DNA of 64,000 nt, taken from positions 27,589-91,588 of IMG/VR virus record IMGVR_UViG_3300017987_000009. The stretch is one strand, 5' to 3'. Numbering within the stretch: position 1 is the first letter of the stretch; each line of letters starts with the position of its first letter. A program made the translations under genes and the position numbers. Source of the DNA: a virus. The notes below the pieces were generated by a model. It saw nothing but the letters and a program-made list of their open reading frames with translations. It searched no databases and was not told where the DNA came from. Positions 7,061-47,453 of the stretch are shown here, in pieces.

Positions 7061-9526
7061 ATGGCGACGCTGACAGTAGACAACAGGCACGCGTACGTGG
7101 AGGGCGCCCCGCTCCACGCGCAGCGCGCGATCGCGCGCGAGACCAGCTACCTGCAGGCCGGGTACAAGCACACCGCCGGGTTCAAGACGAAGCGGTGGGA
7201 CGGCAAGCGGAAGCTGGCGTCGATGCTGAAGGACGGGCGAATCAAGGTCCCGGCCGGGCTGGCGCAGGCGGTGGCCGACACGCTGTGCGACGAGGGCGTG
7301 CCCGTGCGGACGGTCGACGAGCGCCGCCGCCAGGAGCGCAGCGTGGCCTACGGCTGGGACCCGGGGTGCTCGCTGCGCCCGTACCAGGAGCGGGCGGTCG
7401 CGCTCGCGACGACGCCGCGCGGCACGCTCGGCCTGGTCGGCCGCGGGATCCTGAAGCTGCCGCCGCGCAGTGGCAAGACGCTGGTCACCGCCGCCATCGT
7501 CCGCGAGCTGGGCGCCCGCGCGCTGTTCATCGTCCCGTCAAAGTACCTGCTGCACCAGGCGAGGGCCGCCATCGGCGACGCGCTCCAGGCCGAGGTGGGG
7601 CAGGCGGGCGACGGCGAGTGGGAGCCGCGCGACGTGACGGTCGCGACGGTACAGACGCTGTGCAGCCGGCGCGGGAAGAACACCAAGAGGGAGCCGGCCG
7701 CGCCGGAGTACACCGAGCTGCTCGCTCGCTCCGACCTGGTCGTGTTCGACGAGTGCTTCCCGGCGGGGACCATAGTCGGCGACAAGCGAATCGAAAAGAT
7801 CCGAATCGGGGACGAAGTCCCGTCCTTCGACGAAGGTAGCCGACGAGCAGTGAGCGGGCGGGTCGTACGCCTGTTCAAGAAGCGGTGCGTCGAGTTGGTC
7901 AGGGTTCGTTTTATCTGCGGGAGGTCGCTGGTCTGCACTCCTAACCACCCCTTGTACTCGTCGCGCGGGTGGGTCCGCGCCGACAGCTTGACTGAAGGAT
8001 CGGAGGTGCTGCGTGTCGATGACAACGATGGCGTGCACCGGCTGCGGACAGCCGGTGATCAAGACCAGAAAGAGACCGACCGCCTATTGCGAAGCGTGCC
8101 AGGCGGCGCGGCGATTGGCCCGGCGAAAGAAGGTCCAAACCGAGTGCGCCTGGTGCGGGGCGCAGATCCAGTTGAGCGGGCGCCTCGGTCTGCAAGCGGC
8201 GAATCGGGGACGGGGGTACTGCTCGAAACAGTGCAAAAAGAAGTGGATGAAGCGGCGCTGGTCGGAAACGATGGCGGCGACGAACCGGAAGCACGCGTCA
8301 GCTCGGATGAAGAAGAACAACCCGTCAAGGAGACCGGATGTGCGAGCGAAGATATCGCGAACGCTGCGACTCATCGGACACCGTCCGCCGTGGACCGGCG
8401 GCAAGGGGCGAGGGACGACACGACCGCAGCGAGCGCTTCTAGCGGCGCTAACGAGAATCCAAGACGGGTGGACGGCCGAGCTGCCGATCGGCGTCAGAGG
8501 AGTCTCGGGGCTACCGAGGTGCGTCTACGTGGACCTGGCGCACGAGGCGAGCAAGACGGCGGTGGAGGTGGACGGCGGAAGCCACTGCACGCTCAAAGCT
8601 CAAGCGTCGGACCGGAAAAAGGAGCGGTTCTTAGCTGGTCGCGGGTGGACCGTGTTGAGGTTCTCGAACCGGGAAGTGACGGAAGGTTTGGAGGCGTGTG
8701 TCCGGACGGTCACGTCTACAACCTCGAAGTCGACCGGTTCCACACGTACACGGCCGACGGCTTCGTAGTCCACAACTGCCACCACCTCTCGTCCGACGAG
8801 TGGCGCAAGGTCGTGCGCGAGAGCGACGCGCCGTACAAGATCGGGCTGAGCGCGACCGCGTTCGTCGACCGCGAGGAGGAGGCGGAGCTTGGCGTGATCT
8901 GGCTGCGCGCCTGCACGGGCGAGGTCCTGGTCGACCTGTCGTGCAGCGACCTGATCAGGCAGGGCTACCTCGTCCGCCCGGAGATCCGCGTCCACGCGAT
9001 CCGCGAGCCCGACCTCCGGCGGCGCGGCTGGAGCACGAAGCTGCACCGCGACGCGATCTACAGGAACGAGCACCGCAACCGGAAGATCGCCGAGCTCGCG
9101 TGCGGGCACGCGGCCGCCGGCCGGCGGACCGTCGTCGTCACCAGCAGGCTCGAGCAGGTCGGCGCCATCACGCGCTTGCTTGGACAGACGCGTGTCCGCT
9201 TTGCGCGCGTGGTCGGGCAGACGCCTCAGTCGACACGCGACCGACAGGTCTCGCGCCTGCGGCGCGGCGAGCTCGACGCGCTCGTCGGCACTGTGCTGGA
9301 CGAGGGCGTCGACATCCCCGAGGTCGACGCGGTGGTCAACGCCGAGGGCGGCGCCGACGACAAGACCACGTACCAGCGCCTGCGCTGCCTGACGCCGCAC
9401 CCAGGCAAGGCGCGCGCGTACGTCGACGACTTCGTCGACCTGACGCACCCGTACTTCGCGGCGCACTCGCTCAAGCGGCTGGCCGTGTACCGGTCCGAGC
9501 CCGAGTTCCGCGTCGCGGTCCGCTGA
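7061..9526 (+). CDS. Superfamily II DExH helicase precursor containing an intein
   Basis: LRPYQ (Q motif), PPRSGKT (Walker A), VFDE|...|CHH giving DECH after splicing, GLSAT (motif III), VLDEGVDIP, YQRLR. Confidence 0.93.
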   Translation: MATLTVDNRHAYVEGAPLHAQRAIARETSYLQAGYKHTAGFKTKRWDGKRKLASMLKDGRIKVPAGLAQAVADTLCDEGVPVRTVDERRRQERSVAYGWDPGCSLRPYQERAVALATTPRGTLGLVGRGILKLPPRSGKTLVTAAIVRELGARALFIVPSKYLLHQARAAIGDALQAEVGQAGDGEWEPRDVTVATVQTLCSRRGKNTKREPAAPEYTELLARSDLVVFDECFPAGTIVGDKRIEKIRIGDEVPSFDEGSRRAVSGRVVRLFKKRCVELVRVRFICGRSLVCTPNHPLYSSRGWVRADSLTEGSEVLRVDDNDGVHRLRTAGDQDQKETDRLLRSVPGGAAIGPAKEGPNRVRLVRGADPVERAPRSASGESGTGVLLETVQKEVDEAALVGNDGGDEPEARVSSDEEEQPVKETGCASEDIANAATHRTPSAVDRRQGARDDTTAASASSGANENPRRVDGRAADRRQRSLGATEVRLRGPGARGEQDGGGGGRRKPLHAQSSSVGPEKGAVLSWSRVDRVEVLEPGSDGRFGGVCPDGHVYNLEVDRFHTYTADGFVVHNCHHLSSDEWRKVVRESDAPYKIGLSATAFVDREEEAELGVIWLRACTGEVLVDLSCSDLIRQGYLVRPEIRVHAIREPDLRRRGWSTKLHRDAIYRNEHRNRKIAELACGHAAAGRRTVVVTSRLEQVGAITRLLGQTRVRFARVVGQTPQSTRDRQVSRLRRGELDALVGTVLDEGVDIPEVDAVVNAEGGADDKTTYQRLRCLTPHPGKARAYVDDFVDLTHPYFAAHSLKRLAVYRSEPEFRVAVR
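7754..8776 (+). mobile_element. Intein (341 aa) inserted in the helicase Walker B/DExH motif
   Basis: Starts CFPAGT (block A), has CTPNHPL (block B TxxH), VYNLEV..FHTY (block F), ends VVHN followed by Cys+1; less GC-biased codon usage than the flanks. Confidence 0.95.
8013..8768 (+). CDS. Zinc-finger + DUF559/Vsr-like endonuclease overprinted in the +1 frame inside the intein
   Basis: CTGC/CEAC/CAWC/YCSKQC Cys motifs, basic DNA-binding stretch, then YVDLA...AVEVDGGSH...DRKKERFL..RGWTVLRFSNREV; GGAGGT at 8002-8007 before GTG 8013/ATG 8019. Confidence 0.88.
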   Translation: MSMTTMACTGCGQPVIKTRKRPTAYCEACQAARRLARRKKVQTECAWCGAQIQLSGRLGLQAANRGRGYCSKQCKKKWMKRRWSETMAATNRKHASARMKKNNPSRRPDVRAKISRTLRLIGHRPPWTGGKGRGTTRPQRALLAALTRIQDGWTAELPIGVRGVSGLPRCVYVDLAHEASKTAVEVDGGSHCTLKAQASDRKKERFLAGRGWTVLRFSNREVTEGLEACVRTVTSTTSKSTGSTRTRPTAS

Positions 9527-37496: not shown

Positions 37497-39101
37497 GTTC
37501 GGGCGAGGAGGAGAGGACATGGTAGGCAGGCAGCTGGCGGACGAGCGGCTCACGCGCGACAGGGTCGCAGCGGCGGCCGCGAGGATCGTCTCGATACGCG
37601 GCCGCGCGGAGGCCGGCGAGGAGCTCCCGGTCGCCGACGTGTCGTGGATGGCGGACTACGCGCTGAGGCTGGCCGGCGCGTCGCACGAGATGCTGAAGGC
37701 GGTGCGGCGCTGGAGCGACCCGACATTCAAGAAGCGGGTCGACCTCGAGAGGGCGCTGAGGGACGAGGACGCCGAGTGACGGCGCGCAATGCGGGAGACG
37801 CGAGGTTCGCGCTGCCGGTCGAGAGCTACGCGCTCGACGGGCCGTGGCTGTGGCTGCGCGCCGGCCCCGGCCTGGCCGTCGCGTGCCGCCGGTGCTGCGA
37901 GCTCGGCGAGCGGCCGGCGCCGATCCGGGCGCACATCGACACGCGCGCCTGGAGGCACGCGCTGGTCTGCGCGACATGCGGCGCATGGGTTTGGAGCGGC
38001 TCGCGCCTCGTGGTGTTCCGCGAGGGGCGGCTGGCGAACTGAGGACGACGGACGACGAAAGGACGGTGTCTACGATGAGCAGAGAGGGCGAGAGGGAGCT
38101 CAGGACGCTGACGGTGAAGCTGTCGGCGAAGGAGCGGGCCAAGCGGGCGGACGAGTTCGCGGAGGCGGACGAGGAGATCGACCGGCTAGCCGGCGAGAAG
38201 AAGGAGGAGGGCGCGCGGTACAACGAGCTGATCGCGGACGCGGTCGAGAAGAAGAACCGGCTGCGCAAGGAGGTCCGCGCCGGCGAGGAGGAGAAGGAGG
38301 TCGAGTGCGAGTGGCGGCCGGACTGGACGGCGAAGGAGTGGCTGCTGAAGCGGCTGGACAGCGGCGCGGTCGCCGACCGCGAGACGATGTCGCGCGCGGA
38401 CCTGTCGCCGGAGCTGGACCTCGAGGACGGCGGCGGAGACGGCGGCGGAGACGGCGGGGACGCGGCGTGACGGTCGACGAGCGGGAGCTGAGGGTCGAGA
38501 TCGAGTGGGAGATCGCGGAGTCCCTGCGCCGGTACGTCGGCCGCGTCGTCACCCCGCGGCTGAAGTCGGAGGTGCGCGCCGACGCCGTGCGCGCCGCGAT
38601 CGGCGTGCTGCGCCGGCGCGGCCTCCGGCACTCGGACGGCCTCGAGGAGAGGGCGGGAGCCGCCGCCGACCGCGCGATCCGCGAGGTGTGGCCGTGACGG
38701 CGGGCGCCACGCGGGAAACCGCCGCCAAGGAGGGGCGCGCGACGGCCGCGAGGCGCGGCCCGCTCCGGGGCCGCGAGCTGCTGGCGGCGGAGCTGCGCGC
38801 GAACCTGCCGGGCGCCGCCGGCGAGGAGCTGGCGCGGCAGGCCCGGGCGGGCGGCTTCCACTGCCAGGACGGGCGCGCGACGGCCGCGCTGCTCGACGCG
38901 GCGGCCGGCTGCCGCCAGCAGGGCCGCGGCCGCGCGCGGGGCCGCGCGACCGCCGGCGCCTACGACGAGCCGCCCGACCGCCGGGCCGCAGTGCGACGCC
39001 TGCGAGGCACCGCCACGCCCGCGACCGACACGAACACGCCGACGTCGGCCCCGGGCGAGCGACGCCCGCCCACGCCGCCGCCGGGCGCCGGCGCCCGCTA
39101 G
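37357..39101 (+). other. Five coupled hypothetical genes (37357-37779, ~37776-38042, 38075-38470, ~38467-38697, ~38694-39101)
   Basis: GTGA overlaps and RBSs; the last ORF degenerates into low-complexity sequence. Confidence 0.55.
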
Positions 39102-40700
39102 ACACGCCGCCCGGCAACAGGGCGCCCCTGAGGCCAACCTCGCCGCGCCAGCGAGAAGCCGAGAGCGACCGCGACGAAGGAGCGCGGCACGCCGCGCGCA
39201 CAGCGACGAACGCGACACCGGGCACGGCACACGGCGGCACTCGAACCCCCGCCTGCCGGCCAGCCTCGCGCCGGCCGCCACACGCCCGACAACGCGCGAC
39301 TCCTACCCGCACCACGCGCCGACACCACGTACGCCGCGACTCCCACGACACACACGCCGCCTGGACGCGACGGCAGCCGCGGGGGGCGAATATCGACCGG
39401 GACAGGACCGGCTCCGGCCCGGAGCCAGGCCAGGGGCCAGGCCTCCGGCGCGTCGTCGACGCCGACGTCGCCAGCCGCGACGCGTCGGGCGCTCGGAGCC
39501 GCCGCCCGCCTCCGGCTCGGAGGGCGCGGCGCAAGCCCTCGTAACCGTTGCGCTTTCCCGTCCAGCCGCGACGGCGGCGCGACGGGCGCGGTTCTGTGAC
39601 GCCGCGAGCGCGCGGTCACGCGTCGCCGACGAAGTTCGTGGTCCTCGTGGCGCTACCTGCAGCAACACGCGCCAGCACGCCCCCCCCCCCAGTGCCCAGG
39701 GAAGCGCGGCGCGACCTCGGATTGATGCCGTGCCTGCCCCGCGCGGCGAGCAGGACTGGTCGCGCGGAGATTGGGTCGCGGGACGGAGAGAGCGAGAGGT
39801 TGCGCGCACTTGCGGCGGCGAGCGGCGCGGGGCGGCGGGTCCGTGGCGGGCCGGCGGCGGCTCGCGCGACGTCCCGGTGGCGCGCCCCGGGCGCGCCCCA
39901 GGGGGGGGGGCGTCCCCAGGCGGGGCCGCTGGCCGGGCGCGCGGCGGGCGGGCCTGTGGCGACGCAAGTGCTTGTTTTCGTGGGCGAAAGGCGTGCGCGT
40001 GGCGTTGGCGGGCCGGTGCGCCGGCGGGGCGCCGGCGGGGCGCCGTCTGGCCGCGAGGCCAGAGGTGCTGCGAGTGCTGCGAGCGCCGGCCTGGAGGGGC
40101 GGGGCGCAAGTGCCTGGAATCGCTGGCTCCGTCCGTGGCGCGGGCCCCGCGGCGTCGGCCGCCGGTCCCGGCGCGCGGCGCCGGCCTCCAGCCTCGAGGC
40201 GGCGGCGCGTCGGCGGCGCGAGGGCGGCCGCGGCGGTGCGTGGCGGTGCGTGGCGGTGCCAAGGGCGGCGGGGTGCGGCAGGTGCGGCATAGCGCGCGGC
40301 CGGTCCCGGGGCGGCGCGCCGGCCGGCCGGCGGGAAGGGCGGTTCGGCGCCGGCGGGGCGGCGACGTCGGCCCGTGCCGCCTCCGGCCCGGGCGGGCGTA
40401 CGTTCCGCCGCCGGGTCGCCCGCGGCGGACACGGGCGCTCGTGGCCACCCGTCGCGCGGCAGCGCGGAAACCGCTTGTTTTCGCGGCCCGGTTGGCGGTG
40501 GCGCGCGACGAGCGCGACGTGCGCGCGCGGGAGTGGCAAGTTTTCGCTAGTTATTACAATAGCTTGCCGAAAGTAGCGGTTTTCGCTTCTAGATTGGCTC
40601 TCGCTGGCGCTCGCGACGCGGACGAGAAAGCTAGTGGTTACGATAGTTTGTAAATCTCTTGACAAGTCGCTGTGTACACACGCGCTTGTCTGGTCATAAT
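39102..40700. other. Long, extremely GC-rich, apparently non-coding region
   Basis: Only R/P/A/G-rich shadow ORFs; C/A-skewed first part, G-skewed second part; C11 and G10 runs; ends in an AT-rich block. Confidence 0.7.
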
Positions 40701-40710
40701 AATACTTATG
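40540..40710 (+). promoter_or_regulatory. AT-rich control region upstream of the probable early operon
   Basis: TTGACA (40659), CATAAT (40695), imperfect 30-bp palindrome 40661-40690, 21-bp direct repeats at 40546 and 40630. Confidence 0.65.
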
Positions 40711-40737: not shown

Positions 40738-41637
40738 GTGACGGGAATGAAAGAGATCAAGTTCGGAATCGAGATCGAGACGGTGGGCGCGGGTCGCGAG
40801 CGCGTCGCCCGCGGGATCGCCGGCGCGATGGGCTGGACCGCGCGCGTCGACTACCACTGCACGGTGCGCGACGACCGCGGCCGCGACTGGAAAGTCGTGA
40901 CAGACGCGTCGCTGTCCTACAACGGCGCGGAGGTCGTCAGCCCGGTCCTCGAGTACTCCGACATGGACACGCTGCAGGCCGTCGTCCGGGCCGTCCGCCG
41001 GGCCGGCGCGCGCGTCGACTCGACGTGCGGCATCCACATCCACGTCGACGCGGCCGCGTTCGACACCAAGGCGATCGTGAGGCTCGCGAAGCTCTTCTAC
41101 CGGAAGGAGCGGATGCTGAAGCACGCGCTCGAGGTCATCCGCTCCCGCGGCGACCGGTACGCGTGGGACATGAACGCGCGCGGCTTCATGGACCGCCTCC
41201 TCTCGCGGTCGCGGCCGCCCAAGACCCTCGACGAGCTCAACCGCGTGTGGTACGGCCAGCGCGCCGTCTACGACCCGGCCCGCTGCAGCGACCACTACAA
41301 CTCGTCGCGCTACCACGCGCTCAACCTGCACAACGTGTGGTACCGCGGCACCGTCGAGTTCCGGCTCTTCAACTCGGTGCTCCACGCCGGCAAGGTCAAG
41401 TCGTACGTCCAGTTCTGCCTCGCCATCGCGGCCAAGGCGATCAACGCGCGGTCGGCGAGCGCGAAGCGCGGCTACGAGTTCGACCCCGAGAACGCGCGCT
41501 ACGAGCTCTGGTGGTTCCTGCACGAGCTCGGCCTGGTCGGCGACGAGTTCAAGGTCTGCCGCCACCACCTCACCTCGCACCTCAAGGGGACGAGCAAGAA
41601 GCGGACGCAGAACGGGAGCGCGGCCGCGGCCGCGTAG
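40738..41637 (+). CDS. Putative amidoligase (Amidoligase_2, COOH-NH2 ligase fold)
   Basis: FGIEIET, WKVVTDASL, EVVSPVL, STCGIHIHV, RYHALNL, GTVEFR; AAGGAG 7 nt before GTG 40738. Confidence 0.9.
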   Translation: MTGMKEIKFGIEIETVGAGRERVARGIAGAMGWTARVDYHCTVRDDRGRDWKVVTDASLSYNGAEVVSPVLEYSDMDTLQAVVRAVRRAGARVDSTCGIHIHVDAAAFDTKAIVRLAKLFYRKERMLKHALEVIRSRGDRYAWDMNARGFMDRLLSRSRPPKTLDELNRVWYGQRAVYDPARCSDHYNSSRYHALNLHNVWYRGTVEFRLFNSVLHAGKVKSYVQFCLAIAAKAINARSASAKRGYEFDPENARYELWWFLHELGLVGDEFKVCRHHLTSHLKGTSKKRTQNGSAAAAA

Positions 41638-41649
41638 GGGCGCGGCGCC

Positions 41650-41697
41650 CCCGCGGCACGGTGCGGGACGGCGGTTCGACTCCGCCGCGCGGGGCCA
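41650..41697 (+). ncRNA. tRNA-like minihelix (T-arm + acceptor stem + CCA)
   Basis: GGCGG-TTCGACT-CCGCC T-arm directly followed by GCGCGGG-G-CCA, pairing 6/7 with CCCGCGG; no D or anticodon arm. Confidence 0.5.
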
Positions 41698-41723
41698 ACG
41701 AAGCACGGACAAGGAGGAGCGAG

Positions 41724-41951
41724 ATGCTGCTATTCGGAAAGTGGGAGATCAGAGGACGGGAGACGACGGTGGTGGCGGACCGCGGCCGGATTGAGCTGGC
41801 GATCCGCAGCCTGCTCGGCACGGCGACGATGCCGGGGCAGTTCGCGCGCACGTCGTTCACGCCGCGCGACGCGCGCAAGCTGGCGCGCCAGCTCGTCGAC
41901 GCGGCCGACGCGACCGAGGGGCGGATCGGCGTGTCGCGGAGGGCGGTCTGA
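41724..41951 (+). CDS. Hypothetical protein
   Basis: GACAAGGAGG RBS; coupled to next gene. Confidence 0.6.
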   Translation: MLLFGKWEIRGRETTVVADRGRIELAIRSLLGTATMPGQFARTSFTPRDARKLARQLVDAADATEGRIGVSRRAV

Positions 41952-42340
41952 TGCCGTCGAGGAACGAGACGGTCCGCCGGAAGTTCAAGAGGGACGAGGT
42001 CGCGTGGGTCGCCCGGCAACTCGGCGTCGACCGCGCGACCGCTTTCCGCGTCATGCGGCGCGCGTGGCTCGGCGCGGCGGAGGCCTTCGGCTGGGAGCGC
42101 GCCAACGGGCTCGGCTTCCGGGTCGAGACGACGGAGCGGCGGCACCGCACCTCCGTCGTGGTCAGCGTGACGAGCGCGGTCCGCGGCTGGTCGGGCCGGG
42201 ACCACAACCACAACCGGGTGTCGCGCCGCGTGTACCGCGCCGGCGACACGCACGCGCCGACCTTCGATGGGCAGCGCAACATCAACGCCGTGGGCAACGG
42301 CGTCGAGTACCGCCGCGGGCCGGCTCGGGTGGCGCGGTGA
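41951..42340 (+). CDS. Hypothetical HTH-like protein (paralog of 43775-44062)
   Basis: RRKFKRDEVAWVARQLGVDRATAFRVM. Confidence 0.6.
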   Translation: MPSRNETVRRKFKRDEVAWVARQLGVDRATAFRVMRRAWLGAAEAFGWERANGLGFRVETTERRHRTSVVVSVTSAVRGWSGRDHNHNRVSRRVYRAGDTHAPTFDGQRNINAVGNGVEYRRGPARVAR

Positions 42341-42649
42341 CCCGTAGGTTCCTCACGACGGTCTTCGTGCTCGTCCGCTTCGCGGTGGCGAGCGCGACGC
42401 CGGCCGCCGACTGGTCGGCGAGCGTCAACAACAACGGCGGCGGCTTCGTCGCGGTAGAGGAGAAGAGGTAGTGCAGACGTCTCGACGCGCGCGACCGGTC
42501 GGCGGAGCGGATCTCGCTGACTGCGCCATCATTCAGCCCGTCCCGGCTGCCGGCCGGTCGGGCGCGTCGAGACCGACTGCGTCGCACCTTGGTGCGGCGC
42601 GGGCCAAAGCCCGGGCACGGCGCCCGGCACGGACAAGGAGGCGAGAGCA

Positions 42650-43045
42650 ATGACACGCAAGGAGATCGTATGGATTGCGCGGGAGATCGTGGGCCAGATG
42701 AGCGACGACGACCGAGCGGGGTACACGCGGTGCGGGTGGCGAGACGGCGTGGCGATGATGCTACGCGACGATTGGGCCGGCGCGGACCTGGATGACGTGC
42801 TCGACTCGATCGACGACGAGATCGAGGCCGGCCGACCTCGATACACGACGAGCGGCCCCGTCAGAGGATCGTGCGGCCACTACCACCGCACCATCGAGGC
42901 GGCGGTGCGGTGCCTCGAGCGGGATCGCGCGGGGTGTCGGCGGCAAGGCGGGTACTCCGACCGCGAGGTCCGGTACGCTGACGGCTCTCGGCTGACAGAG
43001 GCCGACTACCAGTCGGCGCTTGGAGCCGAGAGAGGCGCGCGATGA
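42650..43045 (+). CDS. Hypothetical protein
   Basis: GACAAGGAGG RBS; GSCGHYHRTIEAA..C..GGYSDR motif. Confidence 0.6.
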   Translation: MTRKEIVWIAREIVGQMSDDDRAGYTRCGWRDGVAMMLRDDWAGADLDDVLDSIDDEIEAGRPRYTTSGPVRGSCGHYHRTIEAAVRCLERDRAGCRRQGGYSDREVRYADGSRLTEADYQSALGAERGAR

Positions 43046-43338
43046 TGACCGAGAAGAAGATGGAGTCCTTCCTGTACGGCGTGTTCGAGGCGCTCGCGTT
43101 CGGCGAGAGCGACGAGCTGCCGGAGATCCTCGCCGGCGCGCTGTACGCCGACGGCGAGAGCGGCGGCGACTCCGCGGTCGAGGCGTCGGCTGTGCTGCGC
43201 GACTTCCGGTGGGACACGTTCGAGGAGAAGGGCGTGCTGACGAGGGACCGCGGGCTGGTCGTGAGCTTCGGCGACGGCCGCGAGTTCCAGCTGACGGTGG
43301 TGAGGTCGCGGTCGCGGCCGGCGCGCCGGCGGCGATGA
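43042..43338 (+). CDS. Hypothetical acidic protein
   Basis: TFEEKGVLTRDRGLVV...DGREFQLTVV; coupled start. Confidence 0.6.
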   Translation: MMTEKKMESFLYGVFEALAFGESDELPEILAGALYADGESGGDSAVEASAVLRDFRWDTFEEKGVLTRDRGLVVSFGDGREFQLTVVRSRSRPARRRR

Positions 43339-43396
43339 CCTCAAGCCGGCGCGGCCGTGGGCGTGACAAGCCCGCTGAACGGACAAGGAGACAGCG

Positions 43397-43687
43397 ATGA
43401 CGAACAGGAACGACAACATCCAGGTAGGTGACATGGTGCGCAGTTTTGATTTTCCGACGCTCAACCGGAGCGAGGTTGGCGAGGACGCGTGCTACGTCGA
43501 GGGAGAGGTCGTGGAGTTTAGGCGGATTGAGGGTCGCACGCGGTACGTGATCCGGGCGACCCGGCGCGTGTTCGGCGGCAAGGAGGTCGAAGCGGAGCAG
43601 CGCAATTTTTACCCGCCTGTCAACGGCACGCCGTGCGCCTTCGGACGGAGCGTGACGGACGGCGTGGAGAAGATCGAGGCTAACTGA
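43397..43687 (+). CDS. Hypothetical SH3-like protein
   Basis: IQVGDMVRSFDF...CYVEGEV; GACAAGGAG RBS. Confidence 0.6.
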   Translation: MTNRNDNIQVGDMVRSFDFPTLNRSEVGEDACYVEGEVVEFRRIEGRTRYVIRATRRVFGGKEVEAEQRNFYPPVNGTPCAFGRSVTDGVEKIEAN

Positions 43688-43688
43688 A

Positions 43689-43748
43689 GTCGAAACGCGG
43701 CAGAGTGTCGCCGCGTCGGGCACGTTGGCAACGTGCCCCTGACGAGAC
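43689..43748 (+). ncRNA. Type II hammerhead ribozyme
   Basis: GTC-GAAA-CGCGGC(loop)GCCGCG-TC^-GGGCACGTTG(G)CAACGTGCCC-CTGACGA-GAC: complete core, stems I/II/III paired, GUC cleavage after 43717. Confidence 0.9.
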
Positions 43749-43774
43749 AGCCAACAGGACAAGGAGGAACGGAG

Positions 43775-44062
43775 ATGTCGAGGCAACAGAGACAGCAGAC
43801 GGTAGAGCGGCGGAAGTTCCGCCGCCTCGAGGTCGCGTGGGTCGCGCGGCTGCTCGGCGTCCGCCGGGGCAAGGCGCTGCGGATCATGGACAAGGTGTAC
43901 CGGGAGGCCGAGCGCGCCAACGCGAAGACGTGGTGCGTGCGGTCGGTGGCGAAGGCCGGGCAGGTCGGCGTGCGGCTCGGCCTGGAGATGGCGAAGGACG
44001 ACGCGCGCGTCCCCGCCGGCGGCGGCCTGACGCTGGGCCGCGCGTACTTCAGGGAGGCGTAG
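43775..44062 (+). CDS. Hypothetical HTH-like protein (paralog of 41951-42340)
   Basis: RRKFRRLEVAWVARLLGVRRGKALRIM; GACAAGGAGG RBS. Confidence 0.6.
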   Translation: MSRQQRQQTVERRKFRRLEVAWVARLLGVRRGKALRIMDKVYREAERANAKTWCVRSVAKAGQVGVRLGLEMAKDDARVPAGGGLTLGRAYFREA

Positions 44063-44063
44063 G

Positions 44064-44960
44064 ATGGGACGGAGGAACGGCAAGAAGCCGCTCGAGGGCC
44101 GGCAGCTGTACTTCGCCTTCGGGTCGAACCTCGTCGCGCGGCAGATGCGCGAGAGGTGCCCGTCGTCGCGCCCGGTGTCGCGGGCGCGCCTCGACGGGTG
44201 GCGGATCGCGTTCGGCGGCCACTCCGGGTCGTGGGACGGCGCGGTCGCCGACGTCGTCCGCGAGGCCGGGGCGTGGGTCGACGGCGTGCTGTACGAGCTG
44301 TCGGCCGCCGACGTCTACGCGCTCGACGCCTTCGAGGGCCACCCCTACGCGTACCTGCGGCGCCAGCTCGCCGTGGCGACGCCGCGCGGCCGGCGCGTCA
44401 AGGCGTTCGTCTACGCGCAGACGGGGCTCGCGATGTTCACGTCGCGCGTGTCGCGCGTGTACTACAAGCGGATGTACGACGCCTACCGGCGGCTCGGCTT
44501 CAACGTGTCGCCGCTGGCGCGCGCCCGCCTCGAGCACGACCGCGAGGTCGACGATCTGATCGCGGAGGACACCCACCGGGTGTTCGTCTACGGCTCGCTC
44601 CTCCGGGGCGAGGGCAACGACGGGTTCCTCCGCGGCTCGTACCTGGTCGGGAAGGCGCGGACCGCGCCGGGGTTCGAGCTGTTCGACCTCGGCGCGTACC
44701 CGGGCATGGTCGCGCGGGGGACGACCGGGCAGGTCGCCGGCGAGGTGTACGAGGTCGACACGCTGACGCTGGCTAGCCTCGACCGCCTCGAGGGCCACCC
44801 GCGGTTCTACCGCCGGACGACGATCCGGCTGGAGGACGGCGACGTGGTCGAGACCTACCTGTTGCAGGACCACCACGTCGCGGACCGCGAGCGGGTCGCG
44901 ACGGGAAACTGGCGCCGCAGGGAGCGGCGCGGAGGAGAGGAGGTGCGGCTTGTTCATTAG
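44064..44960 (+). CDS. Tandem gamma-glutamylcyclotransferase (two AIG2/GGCT domains)
   Basis: LYFAFGSNL...LDAFEGHP..Y and VFVYGSLLRG...LDRLEGHP.FYRR. Confidence 0.9.
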   Translation: MGRRNGKKPLEGRQLYFAFGSNLVARQMRERCPSSRPVSRARLDGWRIAFGGHSGSWDGAVADVVREAGAWVDGVLYELSAADVYALDAFEGHPYAYLRRQLAVATPRGRRVKAFVYAQTGLAMFTSRVSRVYYKRMYDAYRRLGFNVSPLARARLEHDREVDDLIAEDTHRVFVYGSLLRGEGNDGFLRGSYLVGKARTAPGFELFDLGAYPGMVARGTTGQVAGEVYEVDTLTLASLDRLEGHPRFYRRTTIRLEDGDVVETYLLQDHHVADRERVATGNWRRRERRGGEEVRLVH

Positions 44961-45195
44961 AAGCACGGAGGACGGCCGCGTGTTCGGCGGCACCGCTGTC
45001 GAGATCGTCGAGTCGATGCGCGGAGAGGCGTTCACGACCTCGCGCACTGTCGGCGAGTACGTCGACGAGCTCGTGGCGAGCGTCAAGCGCCTGCGCGGCG
45101 TCGACCTGGAGGTCGGCGACGGCTGCGACGCCGACAAGGCCGAGAGGTTCGTCGACGCGATGGTGGACGCCGGGCTGTTCGAGCACGCGGACTGA
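44950..45195 (+). CDS. Hypothetical protein
   Basis: GGAGG RBS; overlaps the GGCT end. Confidence 0.55.
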   Translation: MFIRSTEDGRVFGGTAVEIVESMRGEAFTTSRTVGEYVDELVASVKRLRGVDLEVGDGCDADKAERFVDAMVDAGLFEHAD

Positions 45196-45196
45196 C

Positions 45197-45251
45197 GCAG
45201 AAACCGCCCCGCCACGGGGCGGTCGCCGGGTGGCTCCCGGCCTGACGACGC
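45197..45251 (+). ncRNA. Second type II hammerhead ribozyme
   Basis: GCA-GAAA-CCGCCCCG(CCA)CGGGGCGG-TC^-GCCGGG(TGGCT)CCCGGC-CTGACGA-CGC; core intact, C.A mismatch at the first stem II pair; cleavage after 45224. Confidence 0.8.
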
Positions 45252-45284
45252 ACGCCGGCTAGCCGCGGCGGAAAGGACAAGAAG

Positions 45285-46475
45285 ATGGATCTGATGAAGG
45301 CAAGCAACCAGTGGTCGAGCCGGCCGGCCGACGAGACCTTTTGGGGCCTCGACGACGCGCAGGTGGCGGCGCTGGCTATGAAGAACGCGGCGCGCGAGGC
45401 GAAGGACGTGCCGTACGACGCGCTTCACGTCGAGGCGATCGACGGGGAGCTCGCGCTGGTCGGGCAGTCGGGGAAGCCGGCGTTCCCGACCTTCAGCGCG
45501 ACGGGGCAGCTGTGCGCCCGGGCGAGGTTCCCCCACTCGGTCGCGGCGCGCCAGCCCGCTCAGCTCGCGGCCGACAACATCAACTGGGGCCTCGGGGAGC
45601 GGCTCAAGGCCAGGAGCGGCGACGAGAACGGCGACAGCTGCGTGCTCCTCCTCCACAAGGGGGACGAGCGCCTCGGGCTGCGCGCCATGACCAGCGAGAA
45701 GTACGAGCGGCTGTGGCACTCCGACCTGCTCGCGCGCACCAGGTCGATGCTCGGCTCCGGCTGGCGCGTGCCGCCCGCTCGCCCTTCGCCCTCGCGGTGC
45801 GCCGACCCGCGGATCCGGCCGGCCACCGAGGACGACATCCGCGGGATTGAGGGGCTGACCTCCATCGGGGTCGGCGACACGATCGGGCCCGCCGGCGCGT
45901 ACGTGTCCGACAAGGACATGTTCGTGTTCGTCGTGAACAAGAACGCCATCGACGGGCCGAGCGGCGGCCTGTCGCGGTTCGCCTTCCTGTTCAACAACGA
46001 GATCGGCACCGGGTCGTGGGGCTTCACCTTCGGGTACTTCGACCACGTCTGCGGGAACCACATCGTGTGGGGCGCGCAGGGCGTCAAGGAGATCCGGGTG
46101 CGCCACGTCGGCGAGGGCTCGTTCGAGGACGGCGTCGGCAAGGTCGTGTGCGAGCTGCGCGAGTACGCCGACAGCGCGGCGTCGCTCGACGAGGCAGGGC
46201 TGAAGCGGGCCGCGACCCTCGAGCTCGGCGCGACGCGGGACGAGGTCGTCGAGGCCGTGTTCGAGTTCGCCCGCAAGAAGCGCGTGGGCGAGCTGAGCGA
46301 GAAGCGGATCAAGGCGGCGTACGACCGGGCCGTCGAGGCCGACCGGTACGGCGCCCCGAACACGCCGTGGGCCATCTCATCCGGGCTGACCGAGCTGAGC
46401 CAGGAGACGGCGTTCGCCAACGAGCGGCTCGGCCTCGACCGCGCCGCCGGCCGCGTGCTCGAGATGGCGTTCTAG
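45285..46475 (+). CDS. DUF932-like protein
   Basis: W..RP.DE.F, LRAMTSEKYERLW, YVSDKDMFVF, N.EIG, VCGNHIVWG, RH pattern. Confidence 0.6.
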   Translation: MDLMKASNQWSSRPADETFWGLDDAQVAALAMKNAAREAKDVPYDALHVEAIDGELALVGQSGKPAFPTFSATGQLCARARFPHSVAARQPAQLAADNINWGLGERLKARSGDENGDSCVLLLHKGDERLGLRAMTSEKYERLWHSDLLARTRSMLGSGWRVPPARPSPSRCADPRIRPATEDDIRGIEGLTSIGVGDTIGPAGAYVSDKDMFVFVVNKNAIDGPSGGLSRFAFLFNNEIGTGSWGFTFGYFDHVCGNHIVWGAQGVKEIRVRHVGEGSFEDGVGKVVCELREYADSAASLDEAGLKRAATLELGATRDEVVEAVFEFARKKRVGELSEKRIKAAYDRAVEADRYGAPNTPWAISSGLTELSQETAFANERLGLDRAAGRVLEMAF

Positions 46476-46569
46476 CAGCGCGAGTCGCGCGAGCGACCGT
46501 TGCCCCGCCGCGACCTTGGCCGGCGCGGCGGGGGCCAAGCGGCACGGTGCCGCGGACAAGGAGGACGAC

Positions 46570-46761
46570 GTGACGAACGAGGAGCGGAGGAACAGGGTTA
46601 GGCGCCGGCAGCGGGCGCGGGAGCGCGAGGACGCGCGGCAGCTGTCGACGACTGAGGTCGAGCGCATGGTGAGCGACGCCGCGATCGCGGCCGAGCTGTT
46701 CGGCGAGGACGGCCTCGAGGGGTTCGCCGCGGCGCTGCGGCGGGAGAGGAGGCGGGCGTGA
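46570..46761 (+). CDS. Hypothetical protein
   Basis: GACAAGGAGG RBS before GTG 46570. Confidence 0.55.
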   Translation: MTNEERRNRVRRRQRAREREDARQLSTTEVERMVSDAAIAAELFGEDGLEGFAAALRRERRRA

Positions 46762-47453
46762 GGGCGGTCGGCTACATCCGAGTGAGCACCGACGAGCAGG
46801 CCGAGCACGGCGTCGGCGTGGAGGCGCAGCGAGACAGGATCGCCGCGTACGCGCGCCTGTACGACCTCGAGCTCGTCAACGTGCTCGTCGACGAGGGCGT
46901 CAGCGGGTCGGCGGCCGAGAGGCCGGGGCTCCGCATGGCGACCAACGCGCTAGAGGACGGGCACGCGGAGGCGCTGGTCGTGGCGAAGCTAGACCGCCTC
47001 ACCAGGTCGCTCCCCCACCTGCTGTCGCTGATCGACGAGTACTTCGGGGAGCGGTTCACGCTGCTGAGCGTCGCCGAGCAGCTCGACCCGCGCACGGCGA
47101 GCGGCCGCCTGGTGATGAACATCCTGGGCGCGGTGGCGCAGTGGGAGCGCGAGACGATCAGCGAGCGGACCAAGGCCGCGCTCGCGTTCAAGCGGTCGCA
47201 GGGCGAGTACACGGGCGGCGGCGTGCCGTTCGGGTTCCGCCTCGACCACGCAGGGCGGCTGCGCCGCAACATGTGGGAGGCGCGCGCGATCGACGAGGCG
47301 CGGGCGCACGCCGGCCGCGGCCTGTCGCTGCGGCAGATTGGGCGCGCCCTCGAGGCCGACGGGTTCTTCCCCCGCGCGAGCGGGAGGTGGAGGGCGAAGC
47401 AGGTGTCGCGCCTGCTTCGCGAGGACAACCACGAGACAAGGAGGCTAGGATGA
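46758..47453 (+). CDS. Serine recombinase (resolvase family, short recombinase C-domain)
   Basis: GYIRVSTDEQ catalytic Ser, DEGVSG..RPGL, KLDRLTRS, AQWERETISERTK, PFGF. Confidence 0.93.
   Translation: MRAVGYIRVSTDEQAEHGVGVEAQRDRIAAYARLYDLELVNVLVDEGVSGSAAERPGLRMATNALEDGHAEALVVAKLDRLTRSLPHLLSLIDEYFGERFTLLSVAEQLDPRTASGRLVMNILGAVAQWERETISERTKAALAFKRSQGEYTGGGVPFGFRLDHAGRLRRNMWEARAIDEARAHAGRGLSLRQIGRALEADGFFPRASGRWRAKQVSRLLREDNHETRRLG

Follow-up and report, generated by a model that had tools for sequence, protein, structure and literature searches.

What occupies the few intergenic spacers of a tightly packed phage operon, and whether these spacers divide its RNA into separate pieces, is the question raised by a 64-kb stretch of viral DNA that carries a series of structured spacers between 41.6 and 46.6 kb. 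The stretch (hereafter, the window) corresponds to bases 27589-91588 of the IMG/VR record IMGVR_UViG_3300017987_000009, a complete virus genome of 91,588 bp with direct terminal repeats; its GC content is about 0.69, and all of its genes lie on the plus strand, as do all window features given below. The answer preferred here, with moderate confidence, is a ribozyme-punctuated accessory operon, in which hammerhead ribozymes cut one RNA, the other four spacers serve as non-catalytic, GC-rich hairpin punctuation, and a recurrent leader before the start codons provides the ribosome-binding context.

Gene calling by frame-specific third-position GC (GC3) left exactly six intergenic gaps in this region (gaps 1-6: 41638-41723, 42472-42649, 43339-43396, 43688-43774, 45196-45284, and 46476-46569), with all remaining junctions overlapping or abutting, and thereby recovered the six real gaps that a first-pass annotation, prepared by a model from the sequence, had described. 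Upstream of the operon lies an AT-rich promoter island (40533-40703) in which GC falls to 0.47-0.6. All four sigma-70-like sites detected between 38 and 48 kb are located in this island, compared with 0.2 expected, and the same scan found no promoter-like or terminator-like site within any of the six spacers. Since promoter-like sites occur solely in the island and none occur in the spacers, a single long transcript is plausible, in agreement with the earlier proposal of one transcript from a promoter at 40.6 kb, and the operon (40.7-51.6 kb) may be read as one long RNA starting at about 40.53-40.70 kb.

The clearest ribozyme is found in gap 4. Rfam 15 was scanned by E-value, to E ≤ 10 in 40-48 kb and at E ≤ 0.05 over the whole window, and the Hammerhead_II model (RF02276) matched 43688-43756 over its full length (model positions 1-66) with 45.8 bits (E 4.3e-07), well above its curated cut-off of 37 bits; this was also the sole match recovered in the whole-window scan. 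The core of this element (hammerhead 1) is complete, containing CUGACGA, GAAA, and GUC, with stems I and III closed and stem II open. GAA is located at 43692-43694, stem III (7 bp) at 43695-43716, C17 at 43717, stem I (9 bp) at 43718-43738, and CUGACGA at 43739-43745, and stem II is a 3-bp GUC/GAC helix. In addition, UUGGC in loop I (43725-43729) can form a 5-bp tertiary pairing with GCCAA in the 3' tail (43750-43754), a type of contact that is required for fast cleavage by type II hammerheads (Perreault et al. 2011, PMC3088659). The hammerhead reported earlier at 43689 is therefore confirmed, at the level of sequence, as a genuine type II hammerhead, with cleavage predicted between 43717 and 43718. 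Despite its score, an Rfam scan of the 64-kb window in gathering mode returned nothing, and a separate search of the phage's own genome gave only the weaker second hammerhead described below; the speed filters of both searches lose the GC-rich hammerhead 1.

A second, probable type II hammerhead (hammerhead 2, 45196-45264) occupies gap 5, directly upstream of a DUF932 gene. Here RF02276 matched 45200-45248 with 29.3 bits (E 0.0093), which is below the curated cut-off, and the match was local, covering model positions 5-56 only. Like hammerhead 1, the element has a CUGANGA/GAAA/GUC core in the correct order and closed stems I and III: GAA is found at 45200-45202, stem III (8-9 bp) at 45203-45223, C17 at 45224, stem I (6 bp) at 45225-45241, and CUGACGA at 45242-45248. 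Thus, of the second hammerhead previously noticed at 45197, the core and stems I and III are intact, but stem II is weak, consisting of a C.A pair (10.1-11.1), G-C, C-G, and then a mismatch. A possible tail pairing joins GGCU in the loop (45232-45235) with AGCC 12 nt downstream (45261-45264), and this 12-nt insert is a further difference from the Rfam family. A competing fold of 45190-45284, in which stem I, loop I, and part of the core are sequestered by pairing with the 3' flank, is predicted to be 1.7 kcal/mol more stable. Hammerhead 2 may therefore be slow or inactive, or might act only co-transcriptionally; its cut is probably located between 45224 and 45225. As a separate possibility, the alternative fold could serve this hammerhead as a timing or off switch.

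The DUF932 gene (45285-46475; Pfam PF06067, 447 homologues) was used as the anchor for comparisons with relatives, and loci with DUF932 homologues (L numbers below) were collected by alignment-based search, 80 each from metagenomes, genomes, and IMG/VR. The slot directly 5' of DUF932 also holds hammerheads in L021, L034/L035, L036, L041, L065, L402, L453, and L462, and because these occupy the same position, hammerhead 2 is likely to be functional now or to have been so recently. A descriptor scan of the DUF932 flanks counted upstream hammerheads in 6 of 72 metagenome, 3 of 78 IMG/VR, and 2 of 73 genome loci; downstream, hammerheads were detected in 2/72 metagenome and 5/79 IMG/VR loci and twister-like sites in 1/72 and 4/79, respectively. 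Rfam matches beside the homologues included Hammerhead_II (39.4 bits in L020, 37.4 in L029, 36.7 in L034, and 33.2 in L041) and Twister-P5 (RF02684), which was found twice in L023 (54.9 and 53.0 bits) and also in L021 and L078. The slots flanking DUF932 in relatives can hold a hammerhead of type I or type II, twister-P5, or a twin-loop hairpin with covarying stems (discussed below). The Twister-P5 elements (in L023 and others) lie directly 3' of the DUF932 stop codon, the slot that corresponds to gap 6; however, no twister match at E ≤ 10 was obtained in 40-48 kb of the window, and module M, the element of gap 6 described below, is similar only in having a CCAAG-containing loop or tail. The idea that modules swap between slots is therefore supported for known ribozyme classes around DUF932, whereas no counterpart of the non-hammerhead modules of the window was found in these relatives.

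The closest relative among the loci searched is L390 (59% identity in DUF932, GC 0.51), in which the slots next to DUF932 contain neither a ribozyme nor a counterpart of any window module, only a plain hairpin and a repeated promoter-like box. This box, CTTGACT.GTTGTTACCC with a -10-like hexamer, is located 5' of gene blocks at L390:4700-4725 and 7168-7195, positions at which the window has ribozymes or hairpins. The best genomic DUF932 matches were metagenome-assembled genomes of Planctomycetota with 37-40% identity, which gives a weak hint about the host. Hammerhead-like elements with variant cores were also observed beside DUF932, at about 5560-5640 of L022 (with CUGAAUGA) and about 1975-2040 of L041 (with CCGAUGA); they were called by neither the descriptor nor Rfam.

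Similar arrangements are known. For clustered hammerheads that flank prophage genes, cleavage has been demonstrated both in vitro and in living cells (Perreault et al. 2011, PMC3088659), and type II hammerheads near phage-like genes cleave in vivo (PMC8782182). The present operon resembles the clusters of 2011 in that several hammerheads are co-directional with the genes in intergenic gaps of a phage accessory region, in their type II topology with pairing between loop I and the 3' tail, and in having anti-restriction or accessory neighbour genes. It differs in that hammerheads are found in only two of the six gaps, the others carrying non-catalytic-looking hairpin modules, and in that the genome is that of a complete 91.6-kb phage with terminal repeats rather than a prophage. 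The operon is thus a further example of clustered phage ribozymes, a layout known since 2011. The reason why phages place ribozymes between accessory genes has remained unexplained since then, and the presence of hammerheads and hairpin modules in equivalent positions, together with the varied occupants of the slots beside DUF932 in relatives, makes it testable what the slot requires, be it a 5' end at a set position, a hairpin that protects the RNA, or a site for a nuclease.

The remaining four spacers have a different character. A check against Rfam with Infernal had been suggested for all spacers, and it returned Hammerhead_II in gaps 4 and 5 but nothing at E ≤ 10 in the others. Twister, twister-sister, pistol, hatchet, HDV-like, and hairpin classes were absent at E ≤ 10 from 40-48 kb and at E ≤ 0.05 from the whole window, and neither CUGANGA nor GAAA is present within gaps 1, 2, and 6. 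Short words are nevertheless concentrated in the spacers: GCCAA occurs 4 times in 591 nt of spacers compared with 0.6 expected (P = 0.003), GGCACGG 4 times in the spacers versus 21 times in 91.6 kb, and of the four places in 91.6 kb where TTGG is followed by GCCAA within 40 nt, three are located in spacers. Searches of IMG/VR and of related loci totalling about 3 Mb detected no homologues of the non-hammerhead modules. An nhmmer search with the spacers against 80 loci found only the phage's own genome, blastn of phage records for close relatives found nothing, and searches of IMG/VR with the patterns GGGCCAA...CGGACAAGGAGG and CCTTGG...GGCCAA...GGCACGG gave only chance-level matches, which fell within coding DNA and lacked both the helix and the leader. 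The spacers of relatives contained no T-arm minihelices and no enrichment of NCCA after hairpins (27 observed vs 30.8 expected).

All six gaps end in the leader GACAAG(G/A)AG, 5-8 nt upstream of the start codon, a motif with 14 copies in the window compared with 0.94 expected. The first-pass annotation had treated this leader as the companion of structured spacers, and the GACAAGGAG leader does close every gap; it is not specific to them, however, as it also precedes five genes without a spacer (16731, 23060, 33030, 36005, and 47435). Its occurrence before spacer-less genes implies a general Shine-Dalgarno context rather than a mark of structured spacers, and the GACAAGGAGG leader is the preferred ribosome-binding context of the phage.

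In gap 2, a near-perfect hairpin of 108 nt (42473-42580) forms the best inverted repeat of the 64-kb window, with arms of 25 nt that are 92% complementary. The whole gap folds at -111 kcal/mol (z = -4.96), none of 200 shuffles being equally stable, so that the long hairpin pointed out earlier is indeed the outstanding duplex of the window. Its approximately 31 pairs with single-nucleotide interruptions exceed the duplex of at least about 20 bp that is expected of an RNase III site, and its anatomy makes it a candidate for such a site or for a strong exonuclease barrier. RNase III processing sites are located between the early genes of phage T7. The hairpin resembles these sites as a long, imperfect intercistronic duplex in early polycistronic RNA, but only one is present here, and there is no sequence relationship. 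In gap 3, a 6-bp hairpin with a GUGACAA loop (43357-43375) is present as reported (GGGC-GTGACAA-GCCC, near 43359), but its stability is indistinguishable from that of shuffled sequences (z = -0.30). A boxB/nut-like reading of this loop was rejected because of a mismatch in register.

Another element, module M, is present in two copies, one in the 3' part of gap 2 and one in gap 6; its layout comprises a GC helix of 11-12 bp with CCUUGG in its loop, G-CCA-A(G), a small GGCACGG hairpin, and the leader. Copy 1 (42577-42625) has an 11-bp hairpin with a CUUG loop (42577-42602), G at 42603, CCA at 42604-42606, and the small hairpin GGGC-ACGGC-GCCC at 42613-42625. Copy 2 (46503-46553) has a 10(+2)-bp hairpin (46503-46533) with the loop ACCUUGGCCGG, G at 46534, CCA at 46535-46537, and a second hairpin (46539-46553) that contains GGCACGGUG; a 5-bp hairpin with a GCGA tetraloop, predicted from fold and sequence, precedes it at 46484-46497. 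The two copies are collinear paralogues (local alignment z = 3.96), and fold stability relative to shuffles is z = -2.32 for copy 2 and -0.34 for the 3' part of gap 2. A pseudoknot-like motif (within 42479-42609) and a pseudoknot (46503) had been noted at these sites, and the required complementarity exists in the sequence (CUUGGC/GCCAAG in gap 6, UUGG/CCAA in gap 2), but it is sterically doubtful: the tail starts 1 nt 3' of a stem of 10-11 bp, and the loop of copy 1 is a CUUG tetraloop. Because the tail would have to span the whole helix without a linker, and the loop of copy 1 is closed, helix geometry suggests that the M elements are hairpins and unlikely to be H-type pseudoknots. HDV-like, pistol, and twister readings of gaps 6 and 2 were discarded, since cmscan was silent and neither gap has the helices and conserved nucleotides that these classes require, and a sigma-54 reading of GGCACGG, judged by eye, lacks both the GG-N10-GC spacing and the TTGC element. 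As a side observation, four Acidobacteriota loci (L132, L145, L170, and L171; e.g., L145:4542-4575) show a conserved 11-bp hairpin followed by GCCA, a ribosome-binding site, and a start codon, which is the layout of module M in a sequence unrelated to it.

Gap 1 (41638-41723) begins with a GC hairpin (41637-41651), followed by a T-arm-like hairpin (41670-41686), an acceptor-like strand (41687-41693), G (41694), CCA (41695-41697), and the leader (41708-41716). The T-arm is canonical (GGCGG-UUCGACU-CCGCC), the acceptor-like strand has 7 nt, and the combination of T-arm, acceptor strand, and NCCA turned up in 2 of 100 genomes after shuffling; gap 1 has the words GGGGCCAA and GGCACGGUG in common with module M. 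The gap folds no more stably than shuffles (z = +0.40), and in its minimum-energy fold GCC of GCCA is paired with an upstream GGG. Neither ARAGORN at default settings nor, at E ≤ 10, the Rfam tRNA model recognised a tRNA here. With relaxed settings, ARAGORN drew a cloverleaf with a 6-nt anticodon loop, but shuffled genomes yield about one such match each, which is the false-positive level, and the reading of gap 1 as a tRNA or tmRNA was rejected on these grounds. Of the tRNA-like minihelix annotated at 41650, therefore, the canonical T-arm followed by GCCA stands, whereas a tRNA does not, and the fold is no better than chance.

In the preferred reading of a ribozyme-punctuated operon, one long RNA from the promoter island would span the genes for amidoligase, GGACT, DUF932, resolvase, and MT-A70 methylase, and the type II hammerheads would cleave it through internal transesterification, hammerhead 1 on the 3' side of 43717 and hammerhead 2 probably on that of 45224. 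By analogy with the established hammerhead mechanism, a 2',3'-cyclic phosphate would follow the stem III hairpin at the end of the upstream piece, while the downstream piece would carry a 5'-OH and open with the stem I hairpin, its new end lying 20-50 nt upstream of the Shine-Dalgarno sequence. The other four spacers would act as hairpin punctuation, stopping exonucleases, giving host nucleases a place to cut, or both, with the 108-nt hairpin as an RNase III-type duplex, module M and the T-arm element as helices followed by GCCA, and the gap 3 hairpin having no demonstrable role. This assignment to non-catalytic or host-nuclease punctuation is based on the absence of ribozyme signatures and on the parallel anatomy of all gaps, in which a hairpin that would end the upstream RNA and a hairpin that would start the downstream RNA are followed by a ribosome-binding site. 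Several points weigh against this explanation: the score of hammerhead 2 is below the Rfam cut-off, its C.A mismatch is at the core-proximal pair of stem II, and it faces a competing fold; moreover, the spacers are not random, and passive hairpins alone leave the conserved single-stranded words and the duplication of M unexplained.

Among the alternatives, the one that survives best, although it is considered unlikely, assigns three of the modules to host RNase P. The gap 1 element and both copies of M would mimic the acceptor/T-arm stack of a tRNA, with R-CCA on the 3' side of a helix of roughly 12 bp; the host enzyme would cut on the 5' side of this helix, a position equivalent, relative to the hairpin, to the cleavage site of a type II hammerhead, so that self-cleaving modules and modules dependent on RNase P could stand in for each other in these slots. 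At the level of sequence, the anatomy agrees with this proposal, as helices of 11 bp (copy 1), 10+2 bp (copy 2), and 7+5 bp (gap 1, with an acceptor-like stem of 6-7 bp) are each followed by G-CCA, and GCCA follows just two of the 62 compact hairpins (10 bp or longer) on the genome's plus strand, namely those of the M copies (P = 0.02). RNase P is known to measure a 12-bp stack, to pair with the 3' RCCA, and to cleave hairpins that lack a T-loop, and the non-tRNA substrates of the bacterial enzyme include the 4.5S precursor, C4 RNA of P1/P7, M3 RNA of phi80, and a hairpin in hisCD mRNA (PMC10731613). What the elements described here have in common with these substrates is RCCA on the 3' side of a roughly 12-bp helix, the T-loop being optional, and a location in phage or polycistronic RNA. 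Furthermore, another hairpin 5' of each module could protect the new 3' end.

On the other hand, the two paralogous M copies represent one event, and the GCC/GGG pairing in gap 1, which means that the RCC of one element can pair with the leader, is a known anti-determinant of RNase P; in the predicted folds of both M copies the leader is not paired with RCCA. In contrast to known substrates, position +1 is C and position -1 is G or A, which is suboptimal compared with the preferred U(-1)/G(+1). The lack of NCCA enrichment after hairpins in relatives also argues against RNase P, and the GCCAA word belongs to the tail of the type II hammerhead consensus as well and may be inherited rather than reflect tRNA mimicry. 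A combined version, mixed RNA punctuation by hammerheads and by acceptor-stem mimics that recruit host RNase P and replace hammerheads slot by slot, would be the counterpart of mitochondrial tRNA punctuation in a bacterial virus, and appears slightly less probable still. If the modules with a helix and GCCA are indeed RNase P sites, host processing and self-cleaving processing would be interchangeable; if they are not, the operon would be an ordinary further case of the known layout.

It is less probable again that M and the gap 1 element are relics without a processing role, derived either from type II hammerheads that retained the stem I hairpin and GCCAA tail and lost the core, or from a phage tRNA gene. 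The UUGG(C) loop and GCCAA tail, present in both M copies and almost nowhere else, are the same word pair as in the tertiary contact of hammerhead 1 and in the Rfam type II consensus, and both the absence of CUGANGA and GAAA from these gaps and the degenerate cloverleaf drawn in gap 1 by relaxed ARAGORN would suit decay. However, hammerhead 1 and M share no significant sequence similarity (z = 0.0 to 0.7), and the cloverleaf match is at the false-positive level mentioned above, while two M copies with intact helices and the persistence of spacers in a tightly packed genome suggest selection.

Much more doubtful is the view that the spacers act as DNA-level or protein-binding elements, in which the words GGCACGG and CCTTGG...GGCCAA and the palindrome would be operators, recombination or cassette-junction sites, or a non-sigma-70 promoter for each block. 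The enrichment of these words in the spacers, the resolvase gene within the operon, and the repeated promoter-like box that takes the place of ribozymes beside DUF932 in L390 are compatible with it, but no spacer has a sigma-70-like promoter, the elements are always on the coding strand directly 5' of the ribosome-binding site, and the complementary words are separated by different distances (11, 15, and 22 nt), as would be easier to reconcile with RNA pairing than with an operator of fixed geometry. Finally, that one or more of the non-hammerhead spacers hold a new self-cleaving class, as the first-pass annotation suggested in calling their occupants candidate unrecognised ribozymes, is highly improbable and the least likely reading of what these spacers are: the slots hold hammerheads or twisters in relatives, unpaired words are kept between the two M copies, and new ribozyme classes were reportedly discovered in such neighbourhoods by Weinberg and colleagues in 2015, but these spacers have neither Rfam matches at E ≤ 10 nor, in the loci and IMG/VR records searched, homologues beyond their own genome, and hence nothing to align for covariation, M consists simply of two hairpins and neither a complex junction nor an internal loop with conserved sequence can be seen, the folds of gap 1, gap 3, and the 3' part of gap 2 are of chance-level stability, and the base rate of new classes is very low.

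The comparison with relatives also revealed a different candidate structured RNA in DUF932 leaders, the twin-loop CACNGUNG hairpin, which consists of an outer stem, C-ACNGUN-G, an inner hairpin, a second C-ACNGUN-G, and the other strand of the outer stem. It is found in about one third of phage-derived DUF932 genes (21 of 72 metagenome and 27 of 78 IMG/VR loci) and ends 12-26 nt 5' of the start codon; examples, represented in alignments A2 and A3 and in model R1, are L024:241-284, L038:1276-1316, L041:752-792, L391:747-791, and L414:5944-5987. Neither the eight-nucleotide words nor the closing pairs vary, and covariation is strong in both stems: in alignment A2 the paired fraction of cells is 83% compared with 56% after shuffling, and the covariation score is 0.66 versus 0.18 for shuffled alignments, with none of 500 shuffles as high and slid controls at 0.07-0.20. 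In a search by sequence only, both stems were present at 25 of 37 twin sites, all 25 on the coding strand and before a ribosome-binding site. A covariance model built from the metagenomic examples (R1) retrieved 27 independent members from the IMG/VR loci with 25-41 bits and the same covariation, including L391 and L417, relatives with 48-49% identity. Rfam 15 contains no family for this hairpin, and it is absent from the window, where the best R1 match with filters off had 11.6 bits (E 0.7, minus strand) and the gap 2 site 8.6 bits. In L021 and L041 the hairpin co-occurs with an upstream hammerhead, which implies that it is an addition to the ribozyme and not its equivalent. As a candidate new structured RNA, it might bind a protein as an operator does, mark a site of processing, or act as a ribozyme.

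With regard to the genes, the first cistron encodes an Amidoligase_2 protein (40738-41637; PF12224, E 4.8e-53), and a gene with two stretches of GGACT/AIG2-like sequence (44064-44960; PF06094, E 4.8e-41) lies between the two hammerheads. A small hydrophobic open reading frame of 44 aa (42337-42471), with G or C at the third codon position almost throughout, overlaps the stop codon of the preceding gene and takes up part of the second gap. DUF932 is followed by a resolvase-type serine recombinase (46758-47453; PF00239, E 8.5e-37), a CxxCxxCC protein, an MT-A70 methylase, and then the terminase, and the block from 40.7 to 51.6 kb is probably an early accessory operon of anti-defence type. Two small proteins of the operon, encoded at 41951-42340 (after the gene that follows gap 1) and 43775-44062 (directly 3' of hammerhead 1), have a common N-terminal motif, RRKF[KR]R.EVAWVAR.LGV, and are 58% identical over 38 residues (E 7e-11); neither belongs to a Pfam family. 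Adjoining the promoter island on its upstream side, a region of about 1.9 kb (38500-40400) with a GC content of 0.77-0.85 shows no codon-position GC periodicity in any frame and appears to be non-coding; relaxed ARAGORN gave two spurious-looking tRNA-like matches in it. Among the related loci, about 31 tRNA genes are clustered beside the DUF932 gene of L030 (1177-5276, minus strand).

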